64,000 bases of DNA from Xylographa opegraphella (GCA_022813865.1 JALDZX010000015.1:1-64000), one strand, 5' to 3'. Counted from the stretch's first letter, positions 1-45,948 are shown. Numbers and translations are program-made. The notes: generated from the sequence alone by a model not told the origin.

Positions 1-490
1 TAGGCCTAATCGGCTATAGTAAAGGACCAACAACACAGACTGCTAACGCCCTGATGTTCAACAAAAACAACGTAATGTGCCTTATTGCGAGCTTTGATTG
101 GTAGAGGCTAGAGTCTAACTATAATCTATACTCGAATAGGTTTGTCGTACCAGCTTTAGTAAATATGTTAATGACATCTACGCTAGGTAGTGCTGCTGTT
201 AAGCTAGCTGTAAAAGGTAAGGCTGAGCTACAATAGATCTAGCTTAAGATAGCCCAAAACCCTGCAAAAAGCCCCAATTAGTGCAGGATAAGCTATTTTT
301 AGCGGAGAGCTAAAAGAAATGTGACTCTTTCCAACCATAAAAAACTCCAGATGTCCTTACGCTATATTTTGCAAACCCATTTACTTCATCGCCTCGCATT
401 TCTAGTCGGGCTAGGTACTTATACTCCTTGATTGCTGGCAGTGCTTGCAAAGGTACTCCCGGGTCTTACGCACCTAACCCCCCTCCCTTT

Positions 491-2014
491 ATGCCCAAAA
501 AACACAATCGAATCCAGTACAGCAAGCCGAACATCCCCGTCCACCCCTCCCTCTCCTCATCCACCGGTCCCACTCATCATGGCGCCCACGCGCATGCTCC
601 AGAGTCCTCCACGAGCGTCAACGACCTCATCCAGCGCCTCCGCCGCAGCCAGGCGCCGTCCACCGTAGAGCGAAACCATAGTGACTCCAACCCCCACCCC
701 TCCGTCCATCCCTCGCTGAAATCTATCCTCCAAGTCCCCGACACGCCCGCTCCCCGACCTAGACCACAGGCGGCTGCTGCGCGCCGAAGACAGCGTGGAC
801 CGGCGGGGCCGCCGCCCCCGCGAAGCTGGCTGGTCGACAGCATACACGCTCCGAGATCACTGCGGGCCGCTTCCGCTTCGGCGGAGTCGGTTCACGATGT
901 CTCGCGGCGGTTGGATCGCCTGCCGGGTCTATATCTCCCTGATGAGCGCTCGCTGATGCACCAGACCCTTAAGAGCATGGCGGACAACTGGGCGTGGCAT
1001 ATGGAATACGACCAGTACTACCTCGCCACCCTGCCCGAGCTCCTCAAACAAGCCCTGCTGGCCTACATCGCCGTCTACAGCCCCCAGCCCACGACGCGCG
1101 CCGCCCTCGAGCTCCTCTTCCTAGACGACACCACGCTCGAAGACGCAACCGGCTGCGAGGCCATCACGCACCTCGACCTCAGCGGCGCCGCCACCCTCAA
1201 AGACCTCTCCAAGATCTTCGAGAAACAATCACCCGCGCTCACGTCCGCCGGACCAGCGGCTCCGATCCCCGACACCTGGGACACCCTCGCCCCCAGCCCC
1301 TTCACCACGCCGACGACCCGCTTCCCGGCTCTGACCCACCTCTCGCTCGCGCACCCCCCCTCCCCCTCCTGGCGCCCCCTCCTCTCCACCCTCCCGCACC
1401 TCCGCTCCCTCACGCACCTCTCCCTCGCGCACTGGCCCGCCCCCTCCCTGACCCCGAACGCCAAAACCGCCACCCTCGCCTCCCCGGCGGGCACCGTCCG
1501 CTACGGCGCCAGCGACATGTACAGCGCCTCGGACGGCGACTGGAGCGAAGCCGCCGGCATCCTCCGCCGCCTCGGCCGCGGCACCCTCTGTCTCAAATGG
1601 CTCGACCTCGACGGCTGCGTGGCGTGGATCCGCGCCCTGGCTTGGACGGACGCCGACGGCGCCGGCGGCGTCGACTGGACGGGCGCCTGGCGCGGGCTGG
1701 AGGCCGTGAGGTGCGCCCAGGGATGGCTGCCGCGGGGCTTGGACGGCGACCGGGACGGGGCCGTGTTGCACGTCGGGGACGAGGGCCGCGACGGGGCCGA
1801 GTGGGATGTGGAGGGTGAGAGGAGCCGCTATCGCGAAAAGGTCACTCGGGAGGCGTGGGTGGAGCGCGAGGTGGAGGTTCGTAGGGTGGAGACCTTGGTG
1901 GGTGCGAAGCGGAGAGGTCGCGCCGGGAGAGTGGTGTTTGAGAAGACGGAGGTGGAGGAGTGGGTGGATAGGATGCTGGGGGAGAGGAGTCGGGGGGGTG
2001 GGGATGTGGGTTAA
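491..2014 (+). CDS. Hypothetical protein with Pro-rich N-terminus and LRR-like segments
   Basis: Intronless ORF; first ATG at 491 (MPKKHNRIQYSKP). LRR-like repeats AITHLDLS, PALTHLSLAH, RSLTHLSLAH, CLKWLDLDGC; strong GC3 codon bias. Confidence 0.7.
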   Translation: MPKKHNRIQYSKPNIPVHPSLSSSTGPTHHGAHAHAPESSTSVNDLIQRLRRSQAPSTVERNHSDSNPHPSVHPSLKSILQVPDTPAPRPRPQAAAARRRQRGPAGPPPPRSWLVDSIHAPRSLRAASASAESVHDVSRRLDRLPGLYLPDERSLMHQTLKSMADNWAWHMEYDQYYLATLPELLKQALLAYIAVYSPQPTTRAALELLFLDDTTLEDATGCEAITHLDLSGAATLKDLSKIFEKQSPALTSAGPAAPIPDTWDTLAPSPFTTPTTRFPALTHLSLAHPPSPSWRPLLSTLPHLRSLTHLSLAHWPAPSLTPNAKTATLASPAGTVRYGASDMYSASDGDWSEAAGILRRLGRGTLCLKWLDLDGCVAWIRALAWTDADGAGGVDWTGAWRGLEAVRCAQGWLPRGLDGDRDGAVLHVGDEGRDGAEWDVEGERSRYREKVTREAWVEREVEVRRVETLVGAKRRGRAGRVVFEKTEVEEWVDRMLGERSRGGGDVG

Positions 2015-2511
2015 GTAAGGGTTTGTGAGGCTGGTTTTTGGGGGATATGGGACCGCGGTTCGAGGATCCGGTGATGCACTGGACACGGTGGAATTTTTTA
2101 CGGCTTGTATGATGATACGGGAGGAAGGCTGTTACACGCGTGCACGAGGCGAGTGTCTTTCGTGGTGAGTAACAGGGATGGAGAGAATGTCACCGCTCCA
2201 CTTTTGAGTCCCAACCATCTATGCACACTCCGCGCTACAGATCAGGATCTGTCCGACCAGCGCGACCAGAGACTCCCCCAAGTGCCCCTAGACTCTCCAC
2301 TGCCCTCACTCGTCTCACTACGCTTGCTGCCCTTACTCCCCTCGCTACCCTCGCGGCCCTTACTGGTATCACTGCCTTCACTCCGCATCCCCTCCTCAAC
2401 CCAAACACTCACCTCAACCTCCCATTCCCCCTTCCCCAAAACCTCCACCTCGATCCCTACCACCACAAAGACTCCTTAGCCCCCGTGCCGGACACACGAA
2501 CGACGCACGGA

Positions 2512-5142
2512 CTAACCCGCTCTATCCCCCATACCAGTATCCTTGTCCACCCTTCCACCTTCCACCCCCCCTTCCGCTACCCCATCCAACTCCCCCTCCA
2601 CAGCAGGCCGCGCAAACCTCCACGGGCACCAGACGCCGCCCTCCATCCTCAAGCGGGCCGTTGCCATTGGCGCCGGGCCACGGGTCGACTTGCACGGTGG
2701 ATCAGGCAGGGCGGCCTGGCCGGAGGAGACGGATTTGTTGCTCGGGGCGCAGGCGCCGTTCTGCCAGTGGGCGAGCGTGCGGGCGCGGCCGAGCCCGCCG
2801 AGGTAGAGCGCGGTCGCCGCGGCGGGGTCGGGGCCGATGCCATCGGGGGGCTGAGGGAGGATCCAGGCGGCGGGGTCGATGCCCGTTTCGGCGGCGAGAG
2901 TGGTGGAGGTGGGTGCGTGGGGGCGGAGCTGCTCAATACCAGCGCGGGAGCGGAGGCGGTTGAGTTTGGTGCGCCAGGAAGTGAGTTCCGGGGACGGGGG
3001 CGCGGTGGAGCCGGGAGGGTTGTGAAGGCTGGCGGTCGATCGGCGGGGAGGGATGCTAAGGTGCCTAGGGCTGTGGCGTTTTCGGAGGGGCATGCTGAGC
3101 TTGTGAGGGCCTTGGGACCAGATGGGCGTGTTTTCGTCGACGAGTTTCCAATGCACGGGTGCGGGGGAGCGGAAGCCAGGAGAGAGCTCGTAACGAAGTC
3201 GGTCTAGCTTGGTATGGAGGCTTTGCACGAATAAATCGTTTGCTGCCAAAGCGGAGTCCTTCTGGTCTGGGTTGAGAGCCGCATCGGCACGTTCGTTTGG
3301 TATGAAAGTAAGACCGTTTGGGGACCTTATTGGCAATTCGAAGCTTTGGGATTCCGTGTGTGGTAATGAACAGAGCAATGGAGCTTGGAAGTTGTGCGGC
3401 TTATCAAAACGACGCTTCATAAGGGGCATATAATCAACGCCAGCGCCAGGATCAACGACTGGGAAAAACATAGATGGCTGAGGCACGTTGAGCTCGTCTT
3501 GTTCGGTTTCGGATTCGTGCTGCATCGATACATAGATTCCTCTATCAACGGGTCTTTTACGCATAATTGGTCCGAGCGTCGAATTGGGCGTGGCAGATGG
3601 TGCTTTGACGGTGGGAGTAGCAAATTGAGATAGTGAACTGCGAAGCGTTTCTTTACCCATCAAATGAGAGCTTCGCAGAGGCGGCATTGACTTCGACAAC
3701 GATGGAGACTGGGAGAGCGGGAGATCGTCCCACAACTTGCGATATTGTGAGAGATGTAGCATGTCCATCCGGATTGAGGTTGTACTCTCTTGCCAAGATA
3801 TGGCTCCATCAAGAGAACCTTCCACTTCATAAGCGCTCATATCGTCGACAAACATGGCTGGCGATGTTGGTCCGTAAGTGCGAGGGGTGAAGGGGCTCCC
3901 TGATCGGTCAATAGTGCCACAGTATTTGCTTCCAATAATTTTTGAATAATTATATCCATTTTGCGAGACCAGCCACTTTGGTCGGTCATCAATATGATTC
4001 CAAAGATTTTGATCGTAAGACGTCTTCGAGGCATCAAGGAGAGACATCGACTTACTTCGGGTTGGACGGCTCATCTTGCTCTTGCGGCACGAGTTGAAAT
4101 CAGATGTGTCTTCTGAGTTTGGAGGAACATGTAGCTTGTATGAACCTAGACTTCGATAGGGCTCTGGTATCGATGCTTTCTGAAGCGACAAGTGTTGTTC
4201 TCTCGGCTTTTGAGGGTCACATTGGAGCTTCATCAACGCAGAAGTGAGAGGCAGCGAAGTTATCCTTCTCGTTGCAACTGATTTTAGTCTGTCAAATTTT
4301 GCGGCAAAGCTCAGGTTTTGCTGACGAGCAGGAAATGCCTGAAATCCTTCCGAAAGCCGTTCGTTTTCTTGGCCGGATATAGGTACACCTAACTCTCCGG
4401 AAGTTGCCCTGTGAATTTCCTCGGTGTCGGATTGTAAGAACCACAAATGTCTGTTCGTGACATGGCGTCGTCTGACCGTAGGCATATTCTCAGGGTCACA
4501 TGGCATCGATAGAGCTCCACTCATTACAGGCGCAGCGCCATTGTGACGTAAGATGGGCAGTCGGGCGTGATTCGTTTCAAGGCTGGTCTGGTCAAATCGA
4601 CGATTTTGGGTGTCCGGCAAGGAGTACCTCGACAAGCCTTCTTCTAGCTCATGTTCAGTATTTCTTGATACGCTTGGACTGATTTGCCGTGGCCGAGAAC
4701 CGAGTCTGCTTGACCATTCCGGAGAAGCATATCGAGCAGAAAACACATCATTCCGCTCCTCCGCTGTTACTGTCCCTAGCTCTTCAGGGGCCCAGAACCA
4801 AGCTGTATAGTCTGTAGCGATGTGTTTGATGCCAAGCTTGTTCAGGACGGCTGACCATCTGCGTTTCGGATGCGGCGAGTGGGTGAGCCGACGCCTGAAT
4901 CCTATCAGGTTGTACCAGCTACGGAAACCTTGTATCTGCGCGCCATCTCTGGAACGTTTGTGATTTCTCCATGCCGATGTGATAATTCTATTGAGAAGCA
5001 ATAGAAGGAAAGGAATTAGTATCATAGCCAGTGCAACACCGAGAAATGTTGAGAGCCAAGTCAACAACCATCTGTTGCTTGCAGAGGACGTGGAAGCTGT
5101 ACCATTAGCGGCTAGTAAGTCTGGTAAATCGATCCTCGACAT
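2512..5142 (-). CDS. Hypothetical single-pass membrane protein, mostly disordered
   Basis: Long uninterrupted ORF; first ATG at 5142 (MSRIDLPDLL). One hydrophobic segment (WLLTWLSTFLGVALAMILIPFLLLLL), Ser/Pro-rich body, possible small C-terminal motif (IDPAAWILPQPP). Confidence 0.65.
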   Translation of the reverse strand: MSRIDLPDLLAANGTASTSSASNRWLLTWLSTFLGVALAMILIPFLLLLLNRIITSAWRNHKRSRDGAQIQGFRSWYNLIGFRRRLTHSPHPKRRWSAVLNKLGIKHIATDYTAWFWAPEELGTVTAEERNDVFSARYASPEWSSRLGSRPRQISPSVSRNTEHELEEGLSRYSLPDTQNRRFDQTSLETNHARLPILRHNGAAPVMSGALSMPCDPENMPTVRRRHVTNRHLWFLQSDTEEIHRATSGELGVPISGQENERLSEGFQAFPARQQNLSFAAKFDRLKSVATRRITSLPLTSALMKLQCDPQKPREQHLSLQKASIPEPYRSLGSYKLHVPPNSEDTSDFNSCRKSKMSRPTRSKSMSLLDASKTSYDQNLWNHIDDRPKWLVSQNGYNYSKIIGSKYCGTIDRSGSPFTPRTYGPTSPAMFVDDMSAYEVEGSLDGAISWQESTTSIRMDMLHLSQYRKLWDDLPLSQSPSLSKSMPPLRSSHLMGKETLRSSLSQFATPTVKAPSATPNSTLGPIMRKRPVDRGIYVSMQHESETEQDELNVPQPSMFFPVVDPGAGVDYMPLMKRRFDKPHNFQAPLLCSLPHTESQSFELPIRSPNGLTFIPNERADAALNPDQKDSALAANDLFVQSLHTKLDRLRYELSPGFRSPAPVHWKLVDENTPIWSQGPHKLSMPLRKRHSPRHLSIPPRRSTASLHNPPGSTAPPSPELTSWRTKLNRLRSRAGIEQLRPHAPTSTTLAAETGIDPAAWILPQPPDGIGPDPAAATALYLGGLGRARTLAHWQNGACAPSNKSVSSGQAALPDPPCKSTRGPAPMATARLRMEGGVWCPWRFARPAVEGELDGVAEGGVEGGRVDKDTGMGDRAG

Positions 5143-7869
5143 ATTGATTGGCTTCTCGATATTCAATCGAGACCAGTGAAGCAGAATACCACCACCACAA
5201 AGATAGCGTGCTTTACACCCTGGTTTTTCGTCTTCCACTGCAGCAACTTGCGTTCTATTGGTGCTTGTCTCAAAGGCTTAACCGCCAGCTGAATTGAACA
5301 CAGGGTCAATCAAGCGTACCGCGATCACTCTAGCAGCCAGCTTGTCCATCTCGGCAAGCACATAACGCAATAAGAGGTACTCGTTAGTGCAAATGACAAA
5401 TGAATATGAATCCACAAGATACAACAAACACAGACGGTACCCTCTACTAGACATAAGATTACCAGAGGTGCTTCAAACAAAGTGCATGAAGGGATTGGTG
5501 CAATCGAGCGAAGCCCCGAAGCCCCGGAGAGTGAAGACAGGGGACGAAATGAGGCAGGTGCGTAGTGCGTGCCGTGTCATTGAACAAGACCGGGGAGGAA
5601 CAAGGCGAGCACGACTGCTCTCATTGAAGCTTCCTACTTGGACCAGATAGAACCGGTGGCTGCTAAGCAGAGTGCTCTACAGCAGTCGCCTCCAATAGCC
5701 TGAATGGCTCATGGGGGAGAACGACACTGAGAGGTCGACAATATTTCGATAGCCATCGGCGGACACCGTGGTAGTGTGACACCTTCAGAGGAACATCATC
5801 CACCATTGCGTGCACGCGATTGCGATGTGTAGGATTTCAGACACGGATGAAGTTCCATGGTATCTTCCGTGCAGGCTCTGATAAAGCGCCGGAAAATCAA
5901 ATTCCCACGTGCCTAGGCGAGCGCGGGATGCGGTCGAGCGCAACTCTGCACGTTCATTCGCGACCAGCTGGTCGCGCGGCAGAGACTATATGTCGTGGAG
6001 GTTGTCAATGGCACACCGTTGCCTCGTCGACGTACCTAAGGTAAGTCGTCCTTTACTAATTAAGTACGAGATCGCTCTCGGGGCGGGCCAAAGTTGACAT
6101 CTTCCCGGATTGGGATCGTGGCCGCTTCATGTGGCCTAAAGCGGGCCGCATTGGGCATTAGAGGCGCGGTGGTGGCGGCGAACGCCCCACGCTTACACGA
6201 TCCAGAAGCAGAGAGCCGCGGACCCTGAGAGGCTAGTCGGTTGCAGTTGACTGCCCGGCAATTGAAGATGCGACGTCGGAAGGAATCGTGAGAGGTCGAG
6301 AGAGTTCGTCGATGACGCGGGTGAGGGGCAGAAAAGGGTGCGACAATCGTGGTGACATAGCTGATCTCCCGCTCGCTACACGTAGTCAGATGCGAAAGCT
6401 GCAGAGATCTGACAGCTGGACCCGAAATAGATCTCCGTCCCCAAGGGTCATGGCCATCGGTGTCCCGCCCATTGGCCATTGGCTACAAGCCACACATCCA
6501 TACATCCATCTTGCCTTCACCAACGCTAAATCCACCCGCGGGCCAGCCTACGATCGTGGCGCTTATATGCCTGAGGTCGGCCCCCGGCGGCCGCCAGCCT
6601 GGGCGTCATGGTGGCATTCTCTGAGAAAGCCTAGTATCCCTTAGTCGTGTGTAGTCGAAAACTCTACTGAACAGGACCCTCGCACATTGAGCTTAGAGAC
6701 CGGACTAGCGAATAACGCCGGCATCCTTGCTCCGTCGCAGTGACCCTCTTTCGGCCCAGAGGAGATACGGTTCTGGGGTGGCGGGCGAGAGATGTGAGAC
6801 CTGGCCGCACTCCCTGACGCTATCTGCGCGATTGCCGGCTGTCCCGTGAATAGTCCTGACCGACCGAGCTGAGGAATGAGGAATGACCATGAGTGTCATG
6901 ATGCTCACGAACAACAATCCTTGCGGGAGTGCTGTTGGTGTTCCAAAGCTCAATTGCCGAATCCTGTCCACGCCAATCGACCCTTCTGTATTCCGCACCC
7001 TCTGCCTCGCGGAAGCGGGACATACCAGCGAGGAGCCCGGGGTCAGAGGAGCCCCAGGTCGTTGTGAAGCTATCGGGATCACGGCTCATTCCAGAGGGAT
7101 GCTTCACCCTTGCAGTTGTAACAGTCCAGCCAAAACCGGTTCTGCTCCGCCGAGTACTATCTTTTAGGAAACATGACCTGGGAAGAAAGTAACATCGGTG
7201 ATTCGATTGTCAGAGCTATGCAGTCTCTCGTCCTGTGAACGCCTTAGATTTCCGTGAGGCTGGATTCGTTGCTTTCTTCTCCACCAGAATGCCGTTTACG
7301 ACATGTCTGGAGGATTCTGATCGCATGATCAATGCCGTATTCTGCACGGAGGCGAGCTCAATATTGAAGCCCCTGTTATAATTCCCGTCATCGTAGATGT
7401 GCAGCCCTCGCCAGGACTATAAAGTCAACCGAGGGAAGCCTATGGTCTGGCATCGATCTCAGCACTCTATCCTTGTATCTGAACTCTGAACTGCATAAGC
7501 AAGAACGTATCTGAACAGGAACAGTACTGGTGGAGTGCAGGAGTTCAGGACGAAAGTGAATGATCAACAATGTTAGTATCTTCTCCGTCAAGTTTGCATC
7601 TTTTCCAGTGTAGCGATAGAGTGGTTGATACCCTCACGCTCTCCCATGACAGTGGCACCTGGATAACTGTGATGGACAAGATGTTGTAGTGTTGTTGGCT
7701 TAGTGATCGAGTTGCCTGTTGTGCTTGCAATTCGTCCTTGAAATCAATCAACATCCTCCAGCTCTTCGTGGTTGGGCTGTAATATCTTACTCCTTTTGTA
7801 CCTTTCGATAATGTTGCAACAAACCCTAGAACGAAGTTAACATTCCGAAGCTAGTGGAGGAAAACATCG

Positions 7870-11768: not shown

Positions 11769-12493
11769 ATGGAACGGATGGGCTCTCTAGCCGGTGGTGT
11801 CTTAGGAATATATTGTTAATTGTGCATCGATGGCGACTCGTCTAGCATTAACGGCGTCTTGGAATTGGAAGGTCACATTTGTTTTCATACATAAGTGGAA
11901 CACCCAAGAACCATGTGATGAAATCTCCGGCAAATTCTCTTGCGTGATCATGTTATCATCACGCCTACTTGCCTCATTCTGTGGATCTTTATTCTTAAGT
12001 TTACCCTGAGGGTGCTGTCGATGCAAATGTACGACAAGGTGCTATTATTTATGATGTTGAGAAAATCTTCAGTCGTTATTCAGCCCAACGATCAATTCAA
12101 CAGTTATTTGAAGCGATTCATTGAATGTACACAGAATATTTCAATGAATTGGTTTCACGGAGTAGCAGGTGAGCCTACCTTCGAGGTTGGACAACGCTCT
12201 TATGGCCACTATGCTTCATGGGTGAGCATGATGTATAACACGTCATCCATATTGATAGGCTGAACCGGCTGGCACTAAATATCATTTCCTCCGTGAAGAG
12301 CAGCAAATTACATAGAACTACCTCGGACATGACCTTCGTTACCCGATTCCGACCTTCTTACCCAAACAAGCAAGTAGCCAAAACAGCTGGGAGTGGTACA
12401 GCGTAGGATCGGTCATAGATGGTCATGCCCGGAACAGATTTATATGAAAAATCCGCAATCTGGAGAAGGATGATTCAGTTCTCAACAAAGACC

Positions 12494-15400
12494 TCATCCA
12501 TCAACTGCAGTTAAAGATGAAGGCAGCTTCGAACAAGCCAGCTTAATCAATTCTGAAGTCGAAGCAGCGTTGAGGACAGCAGACACAGCGACATCGATCG
12601 ACAACTCTACGAAATGATCAGTCACCAAATCAAGGTAGGCAAAGCACGTCACATACCTCTGTGGAACCAGTACTGACACGACACCGCACTCAGCGAATCT
12701 AGTCCGTAAATCGCGAGTGACGAGGCAGGATTGAAGACCGACTCGTCGAATCCCAGCAGCTGAGCTACGAAAGTAAGGAAAGCGTCCTGCATCGCGGCGT
12801 GCACGTCCTTGGTTGGAATGTCCGCAAGCTGTTCTCGAACACTAAGCTGCTTTTCGCCTTTGCCTGCAGCGCTGCTAAGGCTGTGATGCTGCAAGAACCC
12901 GAACTCTGGAAGCTCGGTCCAATATAGTTGGGTCTGATCCTGAGATCCGACAAGCTTGCCATCGATTCTGTCAAACATTTCGAGACCAGTGAGGATGAGA
13001 GAGCGCTCGGAGCGGTGGGATTCGACGATGGCGGCCTCCATGATCTTGGCTAGGTCTTCCTTGCACAACGGAGAAAGTCCGCTTCGCAACAGCGTTTGGA
13101 GAAGATCCTGTTTTCCTAGGTCGTGAAGAATGCCAATGTCGGCTATGAATAGTTAGGAATGCGTCTCTCGTCCAAAGTAGACAGGAAAGAAGTACTTACT
13201 CATAGCACCTAAAGCAATCGAGATTGCAGTTCGACCAATTGACCGCCTGTACTCAGCTAAGGCGTTCAAGAACGTGTTTCCGACATTGTAGCCTCCCTGG
13301 TTTCTATTACCGAGCACACTTGCAATCGAAGAAAACATAATAAAGAAGTCCAAGGGGTCATTCAACGTCTCTTCATGCAATATCCAGCTTGAGTCGATCT
13401 TCAGCCGCAGAGCTATGTCCCAATGCCATCCTTCCATGACTGCCATTGGAGCATCCCCAAGCAGCATGACCATGTTGATAATTCCCTTCAGAGTACCTGT
13501 CTTCCGTATTCCGGAAAGTGCTTCGCTCATAGCTTTCCGGTCGCAAGCATCTGCCCTGATTGCTTCGAATGTGATTCCCATTGCCTTGATGTCCTCCCAT
13601 GTTTGTCGTGCTTCATTTGACTTTATTCCGCTTCTTGAAATAGCGATAATTCTCTTTGCACCGTTCTCAACCATCCAACGACACACAAAACGTCCCAGTC
13701 CACCGAGGCCTCCGATAACGATATACGTGCCGTCGCCAGTCAAAAGCCTCGTGGCCTTCTTGTAGATGAGAGCGCTTTTGAGCGCCTTTTCTGGATTGCG
13801 ATTCGCATATAGTAAGGCAGTCGAAGATGGAGTCTCTTGCGCAGCTTGGAATGCCCTATCAATATCCGCCAAGTCAAATGCCTCAAAAGGCTCGGTTAGC
13901 TTTATTTTCTTGTCCCATGCCTGAGCAATCATATATATGCCCCGTTCAGATTCAAGGTAACCTCGGATGTCGACACTTGTTCCGTTAACTCGAAGCCCAT
14001 CACTTCCAGTTGACGTTATCACAAAGTCTGCAGATTTAGCTGAGTCTGGCGTAAGGAAGATCAAGCCTATTTCCTCGCCCAAATTCCTTATCGCTTGCTT
14101 TAAACCCCTTCGGACAGACGATTCAATAGTGTCTCCTCGTCGTGCTCTCGCAGTCCCATCGATGATGCAAAGGGCCATAGCAATGCAAGCGAAGGTGATG
14201 CCCGCCTCTTCGGGTGAAATTGGTTCTGTGTACATTTGAATTTGATTTGAGACGACGTCTAGTACATTACAGTGACCGCCATAAGCAAACCCGACTACTT
14301 TGGTGCCTTGAGGAAACTCGTTGCTAAGTTCCGAGATCACACGGCCAGCAAAGAAAGTTCCAAGGCTCGACTTCGGTTGATTCGGTCGTTTTCCGTTGTA
14401 ATTCGAGATATCGACAATGCCAATAATCGAGGCTTCTACCTCCACATGGATCTTTCCTGGATCATCACCATGGAATCTGTTTTGGTGAAAGGCCAATAAA
14501 ATCGGAGTCTGCCTTGATGAAAGCGAAAGCTCGTAGTCCCTGTTTACTAGGGAAACTTGGTTACTCTGAGGAGGGATAAGACCCATAGAAGCAGAAAGCT
14601 CGTCGTCAGGCAGATAGCGTAGAATATTTGTCGTCAAACCTCTGACTTCCATCTTGATCTCATTTTCTCCACTCAGCAGTGTAGCATAAGCGTGCTGTAT
14701 GGAGTCCTGTATGGCAGACTCCAGTTGATCATCTGAAAGAACGAGCCATGATACTTTGATAGAAGGTTGTTCGGATTGTATAGTACGCAATAAAGTACCA
14801 GCGATATTGGTGTAGGGATTTTTTTCTCTCTGGTGCGTTACCCACAGAATATTGTCGGCGTACTCCAAAAGATTCTGCAGCCATGGAACCAAGTTATTGC
14901 CGGGCCAGGTGGTGATTATAGATTTCTCATTATCGTCATAAACGATTGCACTATACCGCTCTTGCTTCCGCTCGCAAAAGTTCTTGACCGAAAAGGGTGT
15001 CAAGTGTACGTACTCGTCAACTTTGATTCTGGTAGCAGGTTGTGACTCCGGGCTTGAGTAAATGATGGTTGTCAGTTTCGGGGATAAATTATGGTTTATC
15101 TTGTCCGGTTGAGCTCGAAAAAGCGTCCAAACTTCTTCACCGATTCCTACCAGATCGCAGACTCTGCAGAAACGCGAGGGAAATTGTGCGTCGACTTGCA
15201 ATTGCTGAGTACTTATACACACGATACCGCACGGCAGGAGAAGCTTTCCTAAATCATCAAGATTGGTCATATTGCCGGCGAAAAGCAGGTGGAATCTAGT
15301 AGTGTCGATAAAGCTCTCGACTAGCTGAACTCGATCCGGCATGAATCCACTCACTTCCCCGATAATTTGAAAGGACCTAAAGCGGGGCCTCTCTCCTAAT

Positions 15401-18400
15401 TGTGCCCCTGGGAGACCTTCCAGTATCTCACTCAAATTTTCGGGCCTCATATCAATTGCAGCAATGTCGCACATTGGCCACTTATGAGTGACAAGCCTCA
15501 GACATTCGCTAACACTTAGGGAATCTTGAGGCGGCATCCTGGATAAGTCAGGCATCGTGACAGGTTTGAAATATAACGACTTCAGCGCCGGTGGTACATG
15601 CACGAACTCATCAACCTCAAAGTTCACATCCGAGAGCACTATGTGCGTGTCCCCTAGCGCCATGTTGATATCGCAGCGGCTCCCCAGAGCGGTTTCCTCA
15701 CTATTTAGCACTCGGAAACGACCAGTACGAGTGTCTGGCGGGACAGCTGGAACTACTACCGCATGTACAGATGAAAGCTTATAAGTGGCTGGCAAATTCC
15801 GTCCGGAAAATATGTGTGGAGGGCTTCGCAAAATGGACTCGAATACCAATGGGTCCACAAAGTCCACATCCGGGAGTCCCGAATCAGTCTCAAAGCTACC
15901 AGAGATACCAGCCGAGGTAAGAGCGAAGTCCTTGAGCCTGCTAATCATAGAATCATCGTAGCTGGGTGACTGCTGTAGTGAATGCTGATCATGAAGCACA
16001 TCTGAGTTTGGCATATAGCTTCCTGGTCTGGTATCTGTCCATGTAAACTGTCCGGAACAGTGCTTCTTGGAGCCTCTAAGCTGATCCGCTGTGAGAGAAA
16101 GTATCTCGAACCAATATAAACTAGAGTCATCCATCTTGCGAGCACGCAAGTGCATTTCGATAGTCGCTTCTAAGTCTCGGAAGGACGAAAATGACAAGGG
16201 CTCCCAGAACTGTACTTCCGAAAGGTGGAGGTAGCTTGATTTGCATGGTTCCACAATCTGACTTTGCTGCCTCGCGGCTTCGAGTGCCATCAATAGATAC
16301 ATAGTCGGAGGTAAGTTGTTGGCTCCTTCATCCTAGGGGAGTGTCTTGTCAGCCAGAAATTCGAATCAGACTGTACATCCAAACTCTCCATGGTTGAGAC
16401 GTCCTGGTCAAGTATCGAACTATCCGAGAAGGTGTACGAACGCAATCAAATGGACGTGAACTACAACAATTAGGTACTGTACTAACAGACGGTCCCCGCA
16501 TTATCAAAATTACATCGAAGGACTGGCCTTGTTTCTCGCAGCTTATAACGGGGTCGGAGCGTTTTATCGACTCACTTTGATTTTCACAAGCCACGGTACT
16601 TCTTTCAGCATGAGATGATTGCGCCAGCTCGGACGCAAGGGCACATCTTCTGAGTATAGAGATCCAAGCAGTTCATGACGCAAGGTCTTTCGGAATCGTA
16701 TGTTGCGGCTGATTCTTGATTCAGCCCAGAATGGAGTCTTATGATCCCACGAGTATATGGGAACATCAGTGAGCACTGTCCCATAGTGATAGTTTACCTT
16801 CTGACCGTGTTCGCTCTCTTTAGCGTTAATATTTGCAGTATTCAGTTCTAAACCACTGGCTATGAGCGCACCAGCGCTCTCCAAGAGCGTTTGAAAGCCC
16901 CCTTCCCCTCGTAAACAGGAATGAAAGTAATTGACGTTGGCACGGCCAGTACTGCGAACTGTCTCTTGAGCCGGTCCCCTCAGAGCTGGATGTGGTCCAA
17001 TTTCAACAAAAATATAGTCCTCACCAGCACTGCTGACACAGGCTCGTAGTGCCGAGCAAAACTCGACAGTTGAGATCATATTCTCCTTCCAGTACATGGG
17101 TGAGCAATCCTTCGCTTTAACTTGCTGGCCAGTTACCGAAGAAAACATATCACATTCCGTGCTTGAGGGCTGCGGTGCGATATCTGCGTCTCGCAGTGCT
17201 TTCTCGTAAGCCTGAGCCACGTGGGTCATATGATGCGAATGATAGGCAATCTCAGACCGTAATGATCGACAAAAGATCTTCTCTTTTTCGCAGAGCATGG
17301 CAATCTGCTGAACTGCATCATCATCCCCTGAGAGAGTGCAACTGGTCGGTGAATTGACCGCAGCCAACTGGACACGATTTCCAAAACCTTCAAGCAGAGT
17401 ATTCGAGTCTTTCTCACCCAGTCCCACTGCACACATGGCTCCCTTATAGGAACCGTTCAAGCAACGAAGGTATAAGCCACGGTAGAAGGCAATCACCATG
17501 GCATCCCTCAACGATATAAGCCCAGCGGCATGAGCTGCAGCAATTTCACCACTAGAATGACCAACCACAGCCTTTGGTGTCAAGCCCCAGTGCTTCCATA
17601 GCGCTACCAGGCCCAGTTGAAGCGCTGTGCAGAGTGGCTGAGAGTAAGAAGCTTTATAGATGTTCGAGCAGTCGGCCGGTTTCAACAGCTCTTCTTTCAA
17701 AGACCAAGATGGTCCATCGTGTAGTGCCGTTAGCGCATCCTCGCATTCGTCAATGATTCTGCTGAATAATCGTGAGCTCTCTATAAGAGCTTTGCCCATT
17801 GCAGGCCACTGCGCCCCCTGGCCAGTAAAAATAAAAACCACTCTCGATGCTGAAAGGTTACTCCTGGTGTGTGATTGTAAGGTCTCGTCCTGAAACTTCT
17901 TGACGGCTTCCGTATTTGTGCGAGCAGAAAAGAAAAGCGAATAACTGAGTGTCGATCGACGAGACAGCAAAGTGAATGCTAAGTCGTGAAGATCAGGACT
18001 TTTGCTGCTTAGGTAGTCGGCATACCGTATAGATAGTCTTCGAAGGGCATATTTGTCCTCGGCAGAAACTTTGAAAAGCAATGGAGCCTCCGTAGCGTTG
18101 CCTTTTGGGCCAGGCTTTGGATATGACTCCAGAACGCAGTGGCCGTTTGTTCCACCAGCACCGAATGTATTCACTGCGGCGCGCCGTATTTTGTTCTGGG
18201 TCTTAGGCCATCCAACCATCACTGTCGGAATGTGAACGTTATTGAAATCTATCTTCGGATTGGGCGTCACGAAATGCATTTGTGGAGGTATGCTTGCCCT
18301 CTCTAAACACTGGACGGTCTTGATGATAGCTGCTAGTGCAGCACAGGCTTCAAGATGCCCAATGTTGCTCTTCACGGATCCAACAACAAGTGGCTCTGGC

Positions 18401-19611
18401 CTGGGAGTAGTGCCAAATACAGCATTGATGGCAGAGAACTCTAGTGGGTCACCAACAGCAGTTCCTGTGCCCTAGATTGTGAAAATATCAGAACTCGGTC
18501 AACTCTGGAATACTCGGGGACTTCATACATGAGCCTCAACATATTGAATATCGCTGGGAGAAAGGCCCACACGTTTGTAAAGACACTCCATGTTTTGTTT
18601 CTGGGCATTTGCAGACGGCAAAGTAATGCCTTGAGTCCTGCCGTCCTGATTGAGCCTTGTGCCTCTGATCACGGCTCTAATTGGATCATGATCGGCCAAA
18701 GCACTTTCCAGTGGTTTAAGGAGAACAGCAAGAACCCCTTCACCACGACCATACCCGTCACCCTCTGCGTCAAAGCTTCGGCACCTTCCGCTAGGACTCA
18801 GAAATCCCAGTTCGGAGGACGGCATAAACATGTCAGGATTGATGATGAGCTTAGCTCCACAAACCATCGCCATGCCAGCTTCCTTGCCCTCGAGTGATCG
18901 CACTGCCTGGTGGAGAGCAGCCATTGTCGAAGAACAAGCAGTGTCAACGGTAAGGCTAGGCCCAGATAAATTATAAAAATAGCTTATCCTGTTGGCGCCC
19001 ATGCAGGTTGCCTAGTTGAAGTCAATTTCCAACTGATACATATTCACTAACTCGGGCCTCACGGTCCCAGTTGCGAGATATCTGGGCGTAGCATCAATAT
19101 CTCTCGCTAAGACTGTGTGGTAGTCGGTGCCCTCCATACCTACAATATGTCAATATGCCAATCTTGTCAAAGTCTCCCTTGGCGCTCTGGATGACTGGTA
19201 CAGGAAAGCACCTTTCTCACCTGCAAATACGGCGGTATCAGATCCAACAAACTTTTCAAGCGGTATGCCAGCATTTTCAAGCGCTTCATAGGATATTTCC
19301 AGAAGTAATCTCTGCTGTGGGTCGGTAGCAATGGCCATCTGGGGAGACATATTGAAGAAGGCGTTATCAAAACGATCAATGGCAGCGTTATCCATCATGT
19401 AAGCATCCTTCACATTAGTCATTCCTTTTTGAGGACCTCCATCTGGATGGTAGTAGCCTCTGGCATTGAAACGTGTGATCTCGCTCTGGACGTCTTTGGA
19501 TGAGGCTAATAAATCCCATAATTCCGAGGCAGAATCTGCACCGGCCACTCTGCAAGCCATACCGATGATGGCGATTCCTCCCGCTGGCTCGTAAGCAGCG
19601 CTTTGAGACAT
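12494..19611 (-). CDS. Iterative type I reducing-clade PKS: KS-AT-(DH dead)-(pseudo-MT)-(ER dead)-KR-ACP, 7 exons, about 2,200 aa
   Basis: KS triad DTACSS / EAHGTGT / KSNIGHLE; AT GHSSGE and AYHSH; KR GGLGGLG and SSIAS..GN..QGGYN; ACP GLDSL. Approximate exons 19611-19221, 19139-19063, 19011-18529, 18471-16576, 16332-13200, 13142-12657, 12608-12494, all with GT-AG introns. Confidence 0.95.
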
Positions 19612-33617: not shown

Positions 33618-36600
33618 TCAGAGCTCATCCTTGATCATGCTCGTCGCGGACGAGACGGCACTGCTGATGCTACTCGCCATATCCTCTACCCCACTCTGGG
33701 CCTTCTGTATAGCATCACCAGCACCATCGCCAGCTGCGACATACATCTCTGCCAGTCTTACTCTCGCACTTTCTACCGCCATACTGAGTCTATTTTGTGC
33801 GCTTTCGACGGCACCTTGCTCGGGTCCATAGACGGCCTCGCTGACCTTAGCATGGGCATTGGAAAGAGTGTCGCCAATGACCGAAGTTGCGACAGAGATG
33901 TTGTCTTGTACTGCAGACGTCATCGATGAATATGCATTTGCAGCTGCACTTGTAATTGAATCCGCGGTTCCAGTAGGCGTACCATAGATAGCAGCAGAGA
34001 TTGCGTTCTGCGCCGACGATGCCGCACTCTGAATTGAGCTCTGAGCGGCCTCCACGTATCCTGTCTGTGAACCGTATATCCTTGCGCTTACCTGGGACTG
34101 AACAGCGCTATAAGTGCTCGCAGCTTTATCATACACTCCTAGTGTTGTGCCATAAAGTTGAATACTAGCTGCTTCGACTGCAGAGTTAACTTGCTCACTT
34201 GCACTCTCAAGAATAGCTTCAAGTGTTGCGGGAGGAGTGAACACAGAGGATACTACTGATGATGCGGAAGCATAAGCTTCGCTGGCATAACTCGACGCCG
34301 ATGAAGCAACACTGATATGATAACCGGTATTGTAGGCCGAGCTAAGTCTGCTCATCACACTCTCTGTAAAATCGGGCTCCTTTCCAACAACGAGTTCCGA
34401 AAACAATGCTTGCACAGCAGCGAATTGCGAGGCGGCAGAATCAGTAGCTTGAGCGGCAAATTCGCCAGCCTGTGATAGTACTGATTGTGAAAATGGTGTG
34501 GGTGCCCCGTAAACTTGCTCACTGGCCTTGGAGACTAGCACTTGCCAATTTTGGGATGCCTGGCTGGCCACCGATTCACTCCATGGGACCTCAGATCCGA
34601 CAAGACCAGTACTTGCAGCAGATGATATGGAAGCAGCCTTAGCAGAAATTACGGATGCTACAGACTCTATGCTCCCGATAGAAGTTCCATATATCGCCGA
34701 GCTAGCAGCGACAGAAGCCGACGAAAGCGACGCCGATGCCGCTGACAGTGCTGCACTATATTGTGATGATGCAGAATCAAGGGCGCTCTGAACCGGTGAC
34801 TTGATGCTCTCGTCCGCAGTTGTACCTGCAGGGCCTATGATTTTGTGGTAGTTCTCCGATGCCTGTGCTATCGCACTGCTATACTGAACCTGTGCTAGAC
34901 TCATCAAGCTGTGATGTACTGGGATAGGAGTACCGTATACGGCTCCTGAAGCAGCATCATACAAACTTCGGTGGACGGGAGTTGCTGTTCCGTATACTGC
35001 TTCTGATGCCGCATTATAGAGACTCTGATGAACTGGTGTTGGAGTGCCATATACAGCACTAGAGGCTGTACTGATAAACTCAGAATACCTTTCGTGAGCA
35101 ATACCTACTGCTTCATAATAATGTCGTTGAGCATCCATGATGAATTGCTGATGAGCTGGAGTGGGTGTGGCACCAATCGCTCCTTTAGCATTTGAATACT
35201 GTGCAGAGGCGAGGCTGAGACCCTCGGCGAGGCGTGAAGACGCCATTGCGCTAATGGACGCCAGGACACCCGGTGTGGGGCCGTAGATCATGTTGCTAGC
35301 AGCGCTCGTAGCAGACACATGTTGCATTCTCGCAGCATCCATAAGATCGGAATAGCTTTTCGCTATGGCATCACTGTATCCCGTGGTTGAGGAAGGTGCT
35401 ATAACGCTCTTGGCAGCGTCATATTGTGAGGAGGCAGCTGAGATTGCAGCAGAGTATTTCTCGTTCGCAGCCATAACGAGAGACTCTTGTGGACTTAGTG
35501 AGGCGCCATAAACACCAGTGGATGCCGCGCTGATGATAGACTCGAGACGACTGCTGGCAGCATCCAGCGAGCCCGAATACGCACTTTGGATAGACGCAAA
35601 GACCTGTTCATGCACTGGTTGTGGAGTACCAGATATCTGCTGAAGTGCAATTGACATGGCATGTGAATACTGCACTTGTACCTGGCTGACAGCTTCCGAG
35701 TATTTCGAGCTTGCCTGTGCAGCCAGCGATCCTACGACCGGAGTAGCAGTCCCATAAATGACCGACGACGCCCTATTCATAATCAGCATACAAACAGGTA
35801 AGGAGTTTAGCTATACTAACGCTGCTACCGCAACAGAATATCTGCTTGATGCTACACTGGACACTAGCTCCACAGTACCTTGCTGAGTACCGTAAATTGC
35901 CTTTGAAGCCGCGGCGAGTGCACTACTGTACTGTTCGCTCGCTATCGATGTAGCACTTTCAACAGATCCTTGTGGTTGTTTCGAGAGTCCAAGCGCTTCA
36001 ACTACGGCTTTTGTGACATCAGCATAATTATCTCCTGCTTGGCTTATTATGTTCTGTATCTGCTCAGAGTATGACGAGTCCTCGTCCTCGTTCACAAAGT
36101 CATCCAAGATTGGAATGTGCTCCTTGACCTCCTGTGCCATAGCGCCACCAAAGACTTTCTTAGACGCTTGACTTGCAGCAGATGAAGCACTTGCACTGAC
36201 AGAGCTTGCTACACTAGCGGCCGTTGCTGATAAAGGTGCTGAAGATGGCGAGATAGCATCGGTAATAGCAGACGATACCGACATAACACTTTTGGAAACC
36301 TCAGAAGCAATGGACTCATAAGCTGGAGCTGGTGTGCCTATAATCGCTTCACTGGCCCCATGAACAGCTTCATTCGCCTTCTTACTGGCTGCTGAGACAA
36401 CACTTTCGGCTTTTGGCTGCGGCGTACCCATTACTACCTTCGAGAGCTTTGCGGTTGCCGAGGATATAGTCGCTTCTATAGGTGTAGATGAGCTAAATAG
36501 AGCCTCGGAGATGTAGTTTGATGCGTCTGCAGCTTTCGCACTCAGGCCACTTGCAATGGACTCCTGAACGGGTACCGGAGATCCACTAACTGCTTCTGCC

Positions 36601-38849
36601 GCTTTGCTTCCGGTATGTTCAATAAAGTCTGCTTGTGTGCCAATAACCTGAGCTGATGCACTCGATGCAGCGCCCGCAATCGCGTGTGAAGCTTGCGCAG
36701 CTAGAGACTCCGCCTTTCCACTAGGACTTCCTATAATGGATTCAGTAACTGAACTGATTCCCTGCATGACTTGCTGGCCAACAAGCGCCACTTTGGCGGG
36801 CATGATCTTAGTGCCGAAGTCGTCAGACTGATCACCAGCTTCAAGTTTCCATGCGGCTACTTCCTTCAGTCTTGTCAATTCTTTGGCGGCGTTTTCAGCT
36901 ATTGCCATACCCTTTTCCTCAATATCTTCTGCGGCAGACCGTGCGTTGAGTAAACCAGGATGGTCCTTGGCAACGGCTTCGACCTCATTGCGCCATTTAT
37001 CAAACGTTTTCTTGACAGCGTTGTAATTAGTCCAGTCATCGTAAGTCACGCCTTCTATCTCTGCCCAGCGTAGACCAACTTTTTGGAGTCCGAGGTCTCG
37101 AATACTATCAATCACTTCTAGCGTCGAGTCGGAAGCGGCAAGAACTAGCGCCTCCGTCTCATTGTCGAATCTTAATTTCCATGACCTTAAGACCTGAGCC
37201 TTAGACTTCACCGCCTGTCCTGACGTCCGAACAGCTTTAGCCACTTCTTCTTGGGCCTTCTCGAAGTCCTTCTCTAACGGCTCCTCAGGAACGGATTTGA
37301 CGATTTTGTTGATATTCTTTTTCAGTTTTGCGTATTCACCATTCGTGGTTTCCTCAAGCTGTACTACAAGCGCACCGCCAACTCCATTGACTTGGGTCTC
37401 GATCTGACGGTCAGTGATCTCTTTAATGCGTCCATCGAGCTCTTCGGTGCCCTTTCTGGCGGCTTTTGCAAACTTTTCTTGCCAGGTCTTCAGGTCGTCA
37501 GCAATCTGTTTCCGAACCTCCAAGGCCTCTTCATCCGGCGTCGACGAAGGTGAAGCACTTTCAAGTGAGGAAGTGGACGTCTGCGTGAGGATAGCGCTGC
37601 CTGTTGATTGAACGGAAGAAATGATGCTTGAGGACGCTGATAGGATACTAGAAGACAGTGAGACTGAATCCGGAGAGCTGTGGCATACCAGTTAGCTATG
37701 GAGGTCTCGGGGAGCAACTGCTACAAAAATTCCCTCTCTCTAATCTAAGTCAAGCAATACAATCAACATCCAACACATTAGCTGGGATGAATGAGATGAG
37801 TTTATCCATCAGTATCCTTACGAGGTCTTGGGTTCATGATAAAATGACCAAATATAGCCAATCATAGAATAGGGAGCGCCCATTAAGCGTCGAAAGACGA
37901 ATTATGGAAGAGTAGCATACCTGTCAACCTCCTTCACAGCAGCCATCAGCTTCTTGCCATCTCGATATCTACCAAGCCGCTCTCCAATCCTCATCAACTG
38001 AGGTTCGACATTCTCTCCATAGAGCACCCTCAGCTTTGGCCACAAAGTTCGATCAATGAAGATCAAAGACGAGCCCCATATCCATTGAGCATAAGGCAGA
38101 CCAGTCTCTACCACAGCCTTGTGACCCAGCGCATAGGATTTTTTGACGTATGGTTTTGAGATCATGTATACCGGAAGAAGTGTCGACTTATAGGTCCGAA
38201 GCACATTGTCCCGCCCTGCCGTAATGTAGGGTGCCGTAGCAGTTGCGACCTTGCTCACGTGGGGAGCCAGTGATACTTCATATTTTTTGTGAACCTGTGC
38301 TTGGGCTGTTTCAATCTGGGGTCTTAGGGTCGTTTCCCATTGCGCTTGTCCATACCCACGTAGCTGGTTGACCCGAGGTGCACCATATGTAGAGTAGCTG
38401 TGCTTCCCAAGATCAACCACCGGAGTATATATATGTTTATCAAGCTTGTTTACGTAAGGTCGACTCGCATTTACGTAGGGCGCTGCATATGTATCATAGT
38501 AAGGAGTAAGGTAAGGCTCGACATGTGACCGCACTGTCAGATATGGTTTGCATACTACCGACGATTGCTCATTCAGGTTATCGAGTGACGAAGGACATTG
38601 GAAAACGGCGACGAATGCCGTATACCACACCAGCAATCTATTCTACAATGTCAGCCTTAGCCAATACGCAATGTAAGGGTATTTGAATTCCTCTGACCTT
38701 GCCACCATGCTGGATACCCGATTTATTGCGTTTGGCTTCTTAACCGGAGACTGGGAAGGTCGGCCAACTATGTGTCCATTCGGCTCACTATTAGGGAGCT
38801 TTGATTCATCGGAGGGCTCTGTAGGTCGGCCGTTGGCTTTGACTCCCAT
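33618..38849 (-). CDS. She10-like large Ser/Ala-rich membrane/ER protein with C-terminal KDEL
   Basis: Four exons. N-terminal TM segment then FQCPSS..VCKPY, helical coiled-coil region (LKTWQEKF), many A[VI]YGT repeats, ends MIKDEL*. The family assignment is from recalled motif similarity. Confidence 0.7.
34905..35061 (-). repeat. 57-bp coding tandem repeat (about 2.7 copies)
   Basis: AVYGTPTPVHQSLYNAASE / AVYGTATPVHRSLYDAASG / AVYGTPIPVHHSL. Confidence 0.75.
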
Positions 38850-45224: not shown

Positions 45225-45948
45225 CGGAAGGGGGGTGGGATGGGATGTTTTGGGGGCCCGACGAGTCGAGAGAGCGGTCAAGCTTTGGGGTCGACGGCGA
45301 CGGCTTGGGAAGAGGTGCAGTCGCGCCATTAGGTTGCATAGATGATGCAGAATAGTGCCAGTACCTTTACGTGTGATGACACTATCTAGAATGCAGCTTG
45401 TTTACAGATGCATCCTTATCGTCGTCTAGGGTTTTCCTGTAGCGGGCATTTTGAGATACGCAGTTACTTCGGCCACACAGATACCCGCCTCTCCCTAGCC
45501 ATGATAGCTGACACGAGAATCACTCGACCGTTGTGATACGAGCTACGTGGGACCGGAGTGTGCTGGCAGTTCTACTGTATAACAGATCCTCCCGGATCTT
45601 TGCTTCCGTGTCCGATTTTCACATCCTCACGTTCTGCAGTGCTCCCCAGTCCTGAAAAAAAACCTTTGATAGAGAAATATAGGTACTCAAACTTTCGAAT
45701 TCGGCCATATTATTCTGCAGATACAACGATGACTGGCGTGTCCACTACTTCCCGTGATGCCAACAGTACATTCGTGAGCTTCCGGCCGAGCCGCGAGAAA
45801 GGGACCGCATGGCCAGGCGGCCCATTATGACATCACGGGCTCTACCTTGTAGGCTGCGCGTCGGATCACAGCTTGAGGTCACCGCCGCGCGCTCGCGCTA
45901 TCTGCTCGCCTGCACGAATCGTCTCAGCATCGCAGAAGCCATCGCCGT

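Follow-up and report, generated by a model that had tools for sequence, protein, structure and literature searches.

In the polyketide synthase (PKS) LovB, the passages of PMC7870829 on its domains describe an active dehydratase (DH; H985/D1174), an active C-methyltransferase (CMeT) and the trans-acting enoylreductase (ER) LovC; the enzyme's own psi-ER is without active-site residues, leaves no space for NADP+ and is given an 'architecture-fixing role'. ClsI, a PKS fused to a nonribosomal peptide synthetase (PKS-NRPS) in Cladosporium sphaerospermum, is presented in the sections of PMC6891565 on its layout as KS-AT-X-Y-KR-C-A-PCP-TD (KS, ketosynthase; AT, acyltransferase; KR, ketoreductase), where X is weakly DH-like, with TPMAAD replacing HPALLD, and Y is without methyltransferase (MT) motifs I and III. 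It is proposed there for the cladosins, the polyketide part of which is a 1,3-dione-5,7-diol. Also, the highly reducing PKSs (HR-PKSs) Men1 and TpeA, according to the passages of PMC9318984 devoted to them, perform ketoreduction only, their DH and ER being non-functional, and yield a 3-hydroxybutyryl product. Finally, the lichen-only reducing group R-X, or Orthogroup 9, with the string KS-AT-[DH]-[ER]-KR-[ACP] (ACP, acyl carrier protein), lies next to R-II (LovB type) in the part of Gerasimova et al. 2022 that treats it (PMC9146135). Here, these systems are compared with a PKS gene that occupies positions 19611..12494, minus strand, of a 64,000-nucleotide stretch of DNA from Xylographa opegraphella (GCA_022813865.1 JALDZX010000015.1:1-64000), referred to as the window. 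An HR-PKS confined to ketoreduction is an idea already in print (Men1/TpeA, ClsI, R-X), and the family to which this gene belongs is biochemically uncharacterised.

Based on its catalytic residues, the gene probably encodes an active iterative PKS for which ketoreduction would be the only processing of the beta-carbon. The sites of the KS (Cys182 in DTACSS, His317 in EAHGTGT and His356 in NIGHLE), the AT (Ser623 in GHSSGE), the KR (GGLGGLG at 1823-1829, Lys1927, Ser1951, Tyr1964 and Asn1968) and the ACP (Ser2143 in GLDSLS) are all kept, and a Pfam search of the 2192-residue protein gives matches to KS, AT, KR and ACP only. Between AT and KR, no DH, MT or ER is detected by Pfam above threshold, the sole match being PKS_DH_N with E = 0.031. 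The protein would be an iterative type I PKS with the layout KS-AT-DH0-psiMT-psiKR-ER0-KR-ACP, in which the KS and AT would lengthen an acyl starter by malonyl units and the KR would reduce some or all of the beta-keto groups, leading to a short chain with beta-hydroxy (1,3-diol) and/or beta-keto groups, possibly with a terminal beta-keto group. The chain would keep these groups because no dehydration, enoyl reduction or C-methylation would be possible on the enzyme. Since no thioesterase (TE), R or C domain follows the ACP, the chain is proposed to leave through hydrolysis, through the action of an unlinked enzyme in trans, or through lactonisation of a 5-hydroxy thioester. Retention of the dead domains would be explained by a structural role, in which they keep the modifying region and its dimer assembled in the way that psi-ER does in LovB. 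What we infer here is that the enzyme is active, that only the KR processes the beta-carbon, which class of product forms and how the chain is released.

Stop-to-stop frames and the reading of the junctions show that a single minus-strand gene fills 19611..12494, with seven exons and six introns, and a scripted splice gives a joined coding sequence of 6579 nt, or 2192 aa, with zero internal stops. Its exons, the two introns that interrupt domains of the modifying region, and its domains are the following.

19221..19611, minus strand: exon 1, with the ATG at 19611 and the KS N-terminus (Pfam ketoacyl-synt, E=5.9e-27).
19063..19139, minus strand: exon 2, KS (GT-AG junctions, closed frame).
18529..19011, minus strand: exon 3, KS, with the Cys182 codon at 18934-18936 and the His317 codon at 18529-18531.
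16576..18471, minus strand: exon 4, with the KS C-terminus including His356, the KS-AT linker, the AT and the first 44 residues of DH0.
16843-17832, minus strand: AT (Ser623), within exon 4 (Pfam Acyl_transf_1, E=7.9e-57).
16333..16575, minus strand: intron 4, 243 nt, between codons 949 and 950.
13200..16332, minus strand: exon 5, 1044 aa, with the rest of DH0, psi-MT, psi-KR, ER0 and most of the KR (Pfam finds KR only, E=4.3e-52).
13143-13199, minus strand: intron 5, 57 nt, inside the KR.
12657..13142, minus strand: exon 6, with the KR end, the post-KR linker and the ACP (Ser2143 codon at 12694-12696).
12494..12606, minus strand: exon 7, with the last ACP helices and the stop codon at 12494-12496; no release domain follows.
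15535..16707, minus strand: DH0, aa 906-1215, split by intron 4; predicted hot-dog-type fold, no His/Asp dyad.
14890..15534, minus strand: psi-MT, aa 1216-1430, truncated methyltransferase remnant (hhalign to the reference P0177).
14500..14889, minus strand: psi-KR, aa 1431-1560, structural half of the KR (hhalign and model).
13765..14499, minus strand: ER0, aa 1561-1805, remnant with the medium-chain dehydrogenase/reductase (MDR) fold (hhalign and VIA-align).
13138..13764, minus strand: KR, aa 1806-1995, spanning intron 5, with GGLGGLG at 13693-13713 and the Tyr1964 codon at 13288-13290.

Introns 1 to 6 measure 81, 51, 57, 243, 57 and 50 nt, with GT..AG at every one. Intron 4 is the longest by far (3-5 times the other five), has an in-frame TAA three codons in, and lies one codon past the site of the lost DH histidine; the peptide across the exon 4/5 junction is unbroken within a single open reading frame (ORF), P0002, of the Ptychographa relative, where there is no intron, and is identical in the public protein model of the locus, P0151. 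The stop falls 50 residues past the ACP serine. The gene model is also backed by the X. bjoerkii orthologue, which is 2191 aa long and 88% identical in the KS over 440 positions. However, P0151, a record with 100% identity to the protein, has only 2007 aa and begins at Met186, four residues past KS Cys182, so that the first 185 residues are left out (exons 1-2 and the 29 starting codons of exon 3), including the KS active-site cysteine. The public gene model of this locus needs correction.

The fate of the three silent domains was read from an hhalign alignment of the family profile with a canonical HR-PKS, P0177, which carries Pfam DH, MT, ER and KR. The alignment reaches 100% probability over 1339 columns, the DH and MT pairings below being taken from the columns listed, and a second run, also with 100% probability, spans the full psi-KR-ER-KR part. 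In the DH, 'PWLVKIKDEGANNLPP' pairs gap-free with 'PWVRDHVVDSNILYP' of P0177, which puts Ile948 (codon 16579-16581) at the position of the catalytic histidine, and the DxxxQ/H position is taken by Glu1114 (15838-15840) and, four residues on, Arg1118. In the C-MT, 'THKWPMCDIAAIDM' pairs with 'AHKTPGANILEIGGGTGG', motif I is replaced by DIAAIDM (15448-15468), and P0177 has about 200 residues more between the DH end and psi-KR. In the ER, 'IES-SVRRGLKQA' pairs with 'LIHAAAGGVGQA', such that SSVRRGLKQA (14092-14121) stands where HAAAGGVGQA is expected. The glycine loop is therefore missing, there is no Pfam ADH match, and the nucleotide-binding (Rossmann) half shows gaps that sum to about 79 residues versus P0177, one of them of 52 residues. 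As judged from these alignments, the pairings are homologous positions and no chance look-alikes; because the canonical enzyme is aligned with 100% probability through the DH, MT and ER regions, these would be derived and not foreign.

The first-pass annotation, made from the DNA alone, had proposed an HR-PKS with intact KS, AT, KR and ACP motifs, an unbroken frame and a degenerate DH, C-MT and ER, and most of this description holds. All the motif strings it quoted occur in one spliced minus-strand frame whose ends match 12494..19611, the 2192 codons are open and the catalytic residues are present. Its dead DH agrees with Ile948 and Glu1114 at the His and Asp positions in both hhalign and the family alignment, its short C-MT with DIAAIDM at motif I agrees with the pairing to P0177 and the missing residues, and the ER scaffold without an NADPH loop that it saw corresponds to an MDR-type fold kept in the model. 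In the domain HMM check that it suggested, Pfam recovers KS, AT, KR and ACP and none of the other three domains above threshold. With regard to the features of an HR-PKS, the protein has the KS, AT and ACP motifs, the order and fold of the modifying region and the KR residues, and has neither an active DH nor an active ER. The KR-only enzyme it inferred stands in part: by catalytic residues the KR would be the sole beta-carbon activity of the protein itself, and that this activity is exerted is a prediction.

An AlphaFold2 model of exon 5 (1044 aa), obtained with a 37-sequence alignment, has a mean predicted local distance difference test score (pLDDT) of 85 and a predicted template modelling score (pTM) of 0.76, and the 'dead' parts match the KR in confidence. 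Foldseek ranks PsoA first (E 6.5e-54) and LovB next (E 6e-46), followed by the modifying regions of fatty acid synthase (FAS) and MAS. By VIA-align, the model superposes with LovB over 967 residues (Z 23.1, root-mean-square deviation (rmsd) 8.8 Å) and with PsoA over 948 residues, and its residues 597-843 (ER0) superpose with the ER of CurK (5dp1) with Z 21.5 and an rmsd of 2.8 Å over 239/332 residues. The predicted fold and these structural matches suggest that DH, MT and ER persist as folded remnants. A sequence search of the Protein Data Bank (PDB) matched the KR alone, and the ESM Atlas gave leads only below 0.9 (DH/ER/psi-KR-type clusters).

A homologue search with exon 5 against 1.84 billion representatives gave fungal-type proteins, at least 56 in number, whose match extends through the dead region (25-63% identity) and in most cases covers the whole exon; past rank 56, mainly multi-modular PKSs matching the KR only are found. 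Two architectures are present. PKS-only relatives of 2162-2194 aa occur in Xylographa bjoerkii, Ptychographa, Trapelia, Pycnora, Kuettlingeria, Glutinoglossum and Coleophoma, spanning Lecanoromycetes, Geoglossomycetes and Leotiomycetes, and a Circinaria relative is a PKS-only model fused to a helicase. The sister group consists of PKS-NRPS relatives of about 3700 aa, which carry C-A-T-R and occur in Aplosporella, Orbilia, Aspergillus karnatakaensis, Ikaeria and Cladosporium, with Dothideomycetes, Eurotiomycetes and Orbiliomycetes represented. ORF fragments that stop soon after the ACP were rejected as evidence for the PKS-only form, their end 'YWFFK' being a conserved intron position.

The losses are common to both architectures. 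None of the 12 family members scanned has an MT or ER by Pfam, and 7/12 show a weak PKS_DH_N. Across 70 family rows aligned by fast MAFFT, where single counts may shift slightly, the position of the DH histidine carries His in 0/22 covering rows (Ile in five, Leu in four, Met in three, a gap in three, Thr in two and five single residues), and that of the DH aspartate carries Asp in 18/66 relatives and Glu in seven, the X. opegraphella protein being among the Glu rows. The MT and ER glycine motifs (GxGxG, GGVG) are found nowhere in the family alignment. In the KR, on the other hand, Lys is present in 68/68, Ser in 68/68, Tyr in 67/68 and Asn in 66/68 relatives, and the glycine loop in 69-70/70. 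The replacement motifs THKWPMxDIG and ARARxGD...G-xL are shared by PKS-only orthologues and PKS-NRPS hybrids. THKWPMxDIG is a family signature and shows the strongest conservation within the dead region, with K and W invariant in 37 sequences; THKWPM (15469-15486) directly precedes the lost S-adenosylmethionine (SAM) motif and is the counterpart of 'AHKTP' in the canonical C-MT. The invariant residues of the dead region are K284, W285, F661, G663 and G681 (exon-5 numbering).

In a tree of the DH0-to-KR region (29 rows; a canonical HR-PKS served as the only outgroup), 11/11 known PKS-only rows fall inside one group of 16 (Shimodaira-Hasegawa-like approximate likelihood ratio test, SH-aLRT, 94), and 8/9 PKS-NRPS rows fall inside another (SH-aLRT 97), with no firm position at the base for the Orbilia hybrid. 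The X. opegraphella gene joins X. bjoerkii (100), then Ptychographa (98), then Trapelia (99), and since this nesting matches the species relationships, it fits vertical descent. Loss of the NRPS module is the likely direction only, because just one long branch fixes the root. As the alignments present it, the inactive state of DH, MT and ER goes back to the ancestor of the family and predates the split between PKS-NRPS and PKS-only members. Thus, the view of the first-pass annotation that the enzyme was reduced in this lineage is not supported, the triple loss being family-wide, with no DH His in any covering row and the same motifs recurring across fungal classes. Its view that the programme is unusual for the clade lacks support too, given this ancestral state and the ketoreduction-only precedents in print.

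The best structural matches, PsoA and LovB, suggest that the family descends from the LovB/PsoA-type (PKS-NRPS) lineage, a clade that we take to be Kroken's reducing clade II. Of its traits, the inactive ER scaffold is present in the X. opegraphella protein, and a C-terminal NRPS module or condensation-domain remnant is absent. LovB and PsoA (7CPX, 9X2A/B) and the X. opegraphella protein agree in the order (DH, MT, psi-KR, psi-ER, KR) and the fold of the modifying region, and in all of them the ER is an inactive MDR-fold scaffold. However, in contrast to the active DH and CMeT described for LovB in those passages of PMC7870829, the DH and MT of the X. opegraphella protein are dead, and unlike in the LovB system, no LovC-like gene is found near the PKS within the 64-kb window.

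A further parallel comes from ClsI. The PKS-NRPS protein P0050 falls into the same 90% cluster as a protein of Cladosporium halotolerans, has TPMAAD at the expected place, and matches residues 3-1044 of exon 5 with 29% identity (E 2.9e-102). Among the protein clusters compared, only that of P0050 carries TPMAAD; therefore, the family almost certainly contains ClsI. As in the X. opegraphella gene, the region from AT to KR of ClsI/CluI is described in the sections of PMC6891565 on its layout as unassignable, with KR and ACP kept, and the 1,3-dione-5,7-diol of the cladosins is what a ketoreduction-only programme is expected to give, which supports this reading of the X. opegraphella enzyme and offers a testable chemical prediction, that is, 1,3-diol chains. 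The differences, on the same description, are that ClsI continues into C-A-T-R and joins the chain to valine to form a tetramic acid, whereas the X. opegraphella gene stops after the ACP, and that ClsI adjoins a P450, whereas the X. opegraphella gene has no partner in the window.

Other systems resemble the protein in part. Most R-X members are without DH and ER calls in the portion of PMC9146135 concerned, matching the Pfam pattern, the host and the relatives of the X. opegraphella gene; from the description, the domain calls and the host, we infer that R-X may be the PKS-only branch. That portion of PMC9146135 deals in domain calls only, and the DH, MT and ER remnants and the non-lichen and PKS-NRPS members do not appear in it. 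Men1 and TpeA, as presented in the passages of PMC9318984, have a recognisable DH and ER, including the His of HxxxSxxxxP, and about 2500 aa, whereas the X. opegraphella PKS has 2192 aa and has lost this His. Also, they pass their product to an adjacent non-reducing PKS, whereas the window has no second PKS, and they are absent among the close relatives found. Animal FAS (2VZ8/2VZ9 and other structures) likewise keeps a cofactor-less truncated methyltransferase and a half-KR (psi-ME/psi-KR) as structure, and its modifying region superposes with the model by VIA-align (Z 22.5-23.3, 860-864 residues); however, its DH and ER are active, and its sequence identity to the X. opegraphella model is only 12-14%.

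The gene stands alone in its genomic surroundings. Among the 40 long ORFs of the window, there is no tailoring enzyme, trans-ER, hydrolase or second KS/PKS, and no transporter or transcription factor of cluster type; the first-pass annotation had called the gene an orphan. On the 3' side (lower coordinates) lie the mitochondrial ribosomal protein L31, sedlin and a velvet-like protein, and on the 5' side (higher coordinates) about 2.3 kb without recognisable coding precede a glucanase-like gene. The small flanking ORFs, including those of 11802-12357 downstream, have no Pfam match. For the PKS-only relatives, L005 is flanked by an aldolase, an aldo-keto reductase and a transporter, and L002 by a malic enzyme and a GH76 gene, with no ER-like, MT-like or hydrolase gene beside either. 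Because L005 and L002 are also amid housekeeping genes, the orphan state would be normal for the PKS-only branch. L011:6570-22160 is a PKS-NRPS member of the family (KS-AT-dead region-KR-ACP-C-A-T-R) with an MFS gene upstream and a P450 and an SDR gene downstream. The pairing of a PKS-NRPS with a P450 in L011 recalls the ClsI and P450 pair of Cladosporium.

Constraint on the protein was evaluated by domain. Identity to X. bjoerkii is 88% for KS, 78% for AT, 88% for KR, 87% for ACP and 78% for psi-KR, versus 66% for DH0, 61% for psi-MT and 63% for ER0, with almost no indels in either set, and across fungal classes, the dead domains stay at 22-41% identity, the dead region as a whole still aligning over its full length at 24-30% in other classes. 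This suggests a relaxed but real constraint on the dead region. The ratio of nonsynonymous to synonymous substitution rates (dN/dS) was obtained for L002 versus L019, two loci of a metagenomic PKS-only sub-lineage that is 37% identical to the X. opegraphella protein and, for that reason, weakly informative for its gene. The values are 0.34 (0.21-0.56) for DH0, 0.35 (0.11-1.18) for KR, 0.11 for post-KR/ACP and 0.51 (bootstrap 0.21-1.51) for psi-MT, and the intervals are wide in the L002/L003/L019 comparisons. The L005/L006/L007 loci (dS about 0.01) are too alike for dN/dS, save for a poorly aligned segment where the ORF begins.

The dN/dS of DH0, as low as that of the KR in this one pair, could be read as a sign that more than ketoreduction takes place, with DH0 or psi-MT in a non-canonical role (such as cyclisation, release, or dehydration that uses other residues), or with unlinked enzymes that supply dehydration, enoyl reduction or methylation in trans. 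The Asp of DxxxQ/H kept in part of the relatives (18/66), the near invariance of THKWPM in psi-MT and the use of a trans-ER by LovB-type enzymes, as given in the LovB passages of PMC7870829, point in the same direction. Nonetheless, this reading is doubtful. DH0 has no conserved His, Cys or Asp, its near-invariant residues being Met, Glu, Glu, Ile and Gly, and the Asp is gone in both Xylographa proteins too. Moreover, the SAM and NADPH glycine motifs are gone, no ER-like, MT-like or hydrolase gene is present in the 64-kb window or beside L005 and L002, and the product proposed for the ClsI relative in the cladosin passages of PMC6891565 requires no dehydration.

Several observations count against an active enzyme with scaffolding remnants in which ketoreduction is the only processing step. 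In the L002/L019 pair, psi-KR (1.05, bootstrap 0.48-4.49) and ER0 (1.06, 0.46-2.88) have dN/dS values close to 1, and the middle region (psi-MT to ER0) is disrupted in 2/4 close metagenomic copies: L001 has a 4-bp deletion at about 11620, and L019 has a TAA at 11798-11800 (AAA in the relative) that sits inside a lineage-specific 16-residue insertion. These disruptions could be real decay or assembly errors; if real, family members can decay, or the constraint on the scaffold is weak. Also, the only outgroup of the tree sits on a long branch, and the support of 94 for the PKS-only group is not decisive. Finally, the link between ClsI and the cladosins is a literature proposal only, with no genetic proof in the sections of PMC6891565 that propose it.

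The first two of these observations would suit a relic nearing the pseudogene state, which has lost its NRPS module and its partners and is unused, so that its open frame would be only a matter of time. The isolation of the gene amid housekeeping genes (sedlin, mitochondrial L31, glucanase-like) and the failure of the public annotation to recover its 5' exons, with P0151 starting in exon 3, could be taken in the same sense. However, such a relic would hardly retain 2192 open codons with GT..AG at all six introns, all the KS, AT, KR and ACP catalytic residues, and orthologues that carry these residues, at a length of about 2160-2194 aa, in three fungal classes. In addition, KS and KR at 88% identity to X. 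bjoerkii versus 61-66% for the dead domains is the pattern of selection on activity, and the PKS-only L005 and L002 are likewise alone amid housekeeping genes. Thus, as far as the sequence of the locus indicates, incipient pseudogenisation of the X. opegraphella gene is unlikely.

The protein also resembles the 6-methylsalicylic acid synthase (6-MSAS) type, since both have the apparent string KS-AT-(DH)-KR-ACP and a single reductive activity. That type forms its own lineage, in which MT and ER remnants are lacking and the DH/TH domain has a catalytic His, and because the X. opegraphella gene has MT and ER remnants, the likeness is convergent at most. Accordingly, a partially or non-reducing enzyme with a rarely or never used KR, making a small pyrone (triacetic-acid-lactone type) or a 6-MSAS-like aromatic acid, is very improbable: the Pfam string KS-AT-KR-ACP of a partially reducing PKS and the missing release domain, which spontaneous chain release by pyrone formation would explain, are outweighed by psi-MT, psi-KR and ER0 remnants homologous to those of HR-PKSs, by the top structural matches PsoA and LovB, by the absence of the DH/TH His that the 6-MSAS type requires, and by KR residues kept in 66-68/68 relatives, which argue that the KR is in use.

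Returning to an active, ketoreduction-only PKS as the preferred reading, a bolder version may be put forward only tentatively. The PKS-only branch could be a stand-alone, vertically inherited beta-hydroxy/1,3-diol acyl synthase that arose once from a PKS-NRPS through loss of the NRPS module and was kept outside clusters in Lecanoromycetes, Geoglossomycetes and Leotiomycetes. Its product might be a single, conserved small hydroxy-acid or delta-lactone that serves physiology as a signal, an osmolyte-like compound or a building block of lipids, not a lineage-specific secondary metabolite, and the dead domains of the enzyme would be purely a dimeric frame for the KR. To our knowledge, almost nothing is known of the products of lichen-fungal reducing PKSs. 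No functional study of this family was found in the literature, and the relevant passages of PMC13062703, on Xylographa and polyketide synthases, do not mention the gene. The family is widespread and can be recognised by THKWPMxDIG, the absence of the DH His and a truncated ER. As it has a single reductive activity and neither partners nor a release domain, the enzyme would be tractable for heterologous expression. Also, it would represent a natural case of how far FAS-like DH, MT and ER domains can decay and yet serve as a scaffold.

Elsewhere in the window, positions 1-5300 have a GC content of 58-62%, versus about 49% in the rest, with long ORFs at 341-2014 (plus strand) and 2512-5277 (minus strand) that have no Pfam match. 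Two adjoining minus-strand ORFs of 730 and 626 aa at 33618-37691 have no Pfam match at E <= 1e-4. Finally, 45924-51026 holds a divergently arranged pair from primary metabolism, an acetate kinase (minus strand, in two ORF pieces) and a phosphoketolase, XFP (plus strand, in two pieces).

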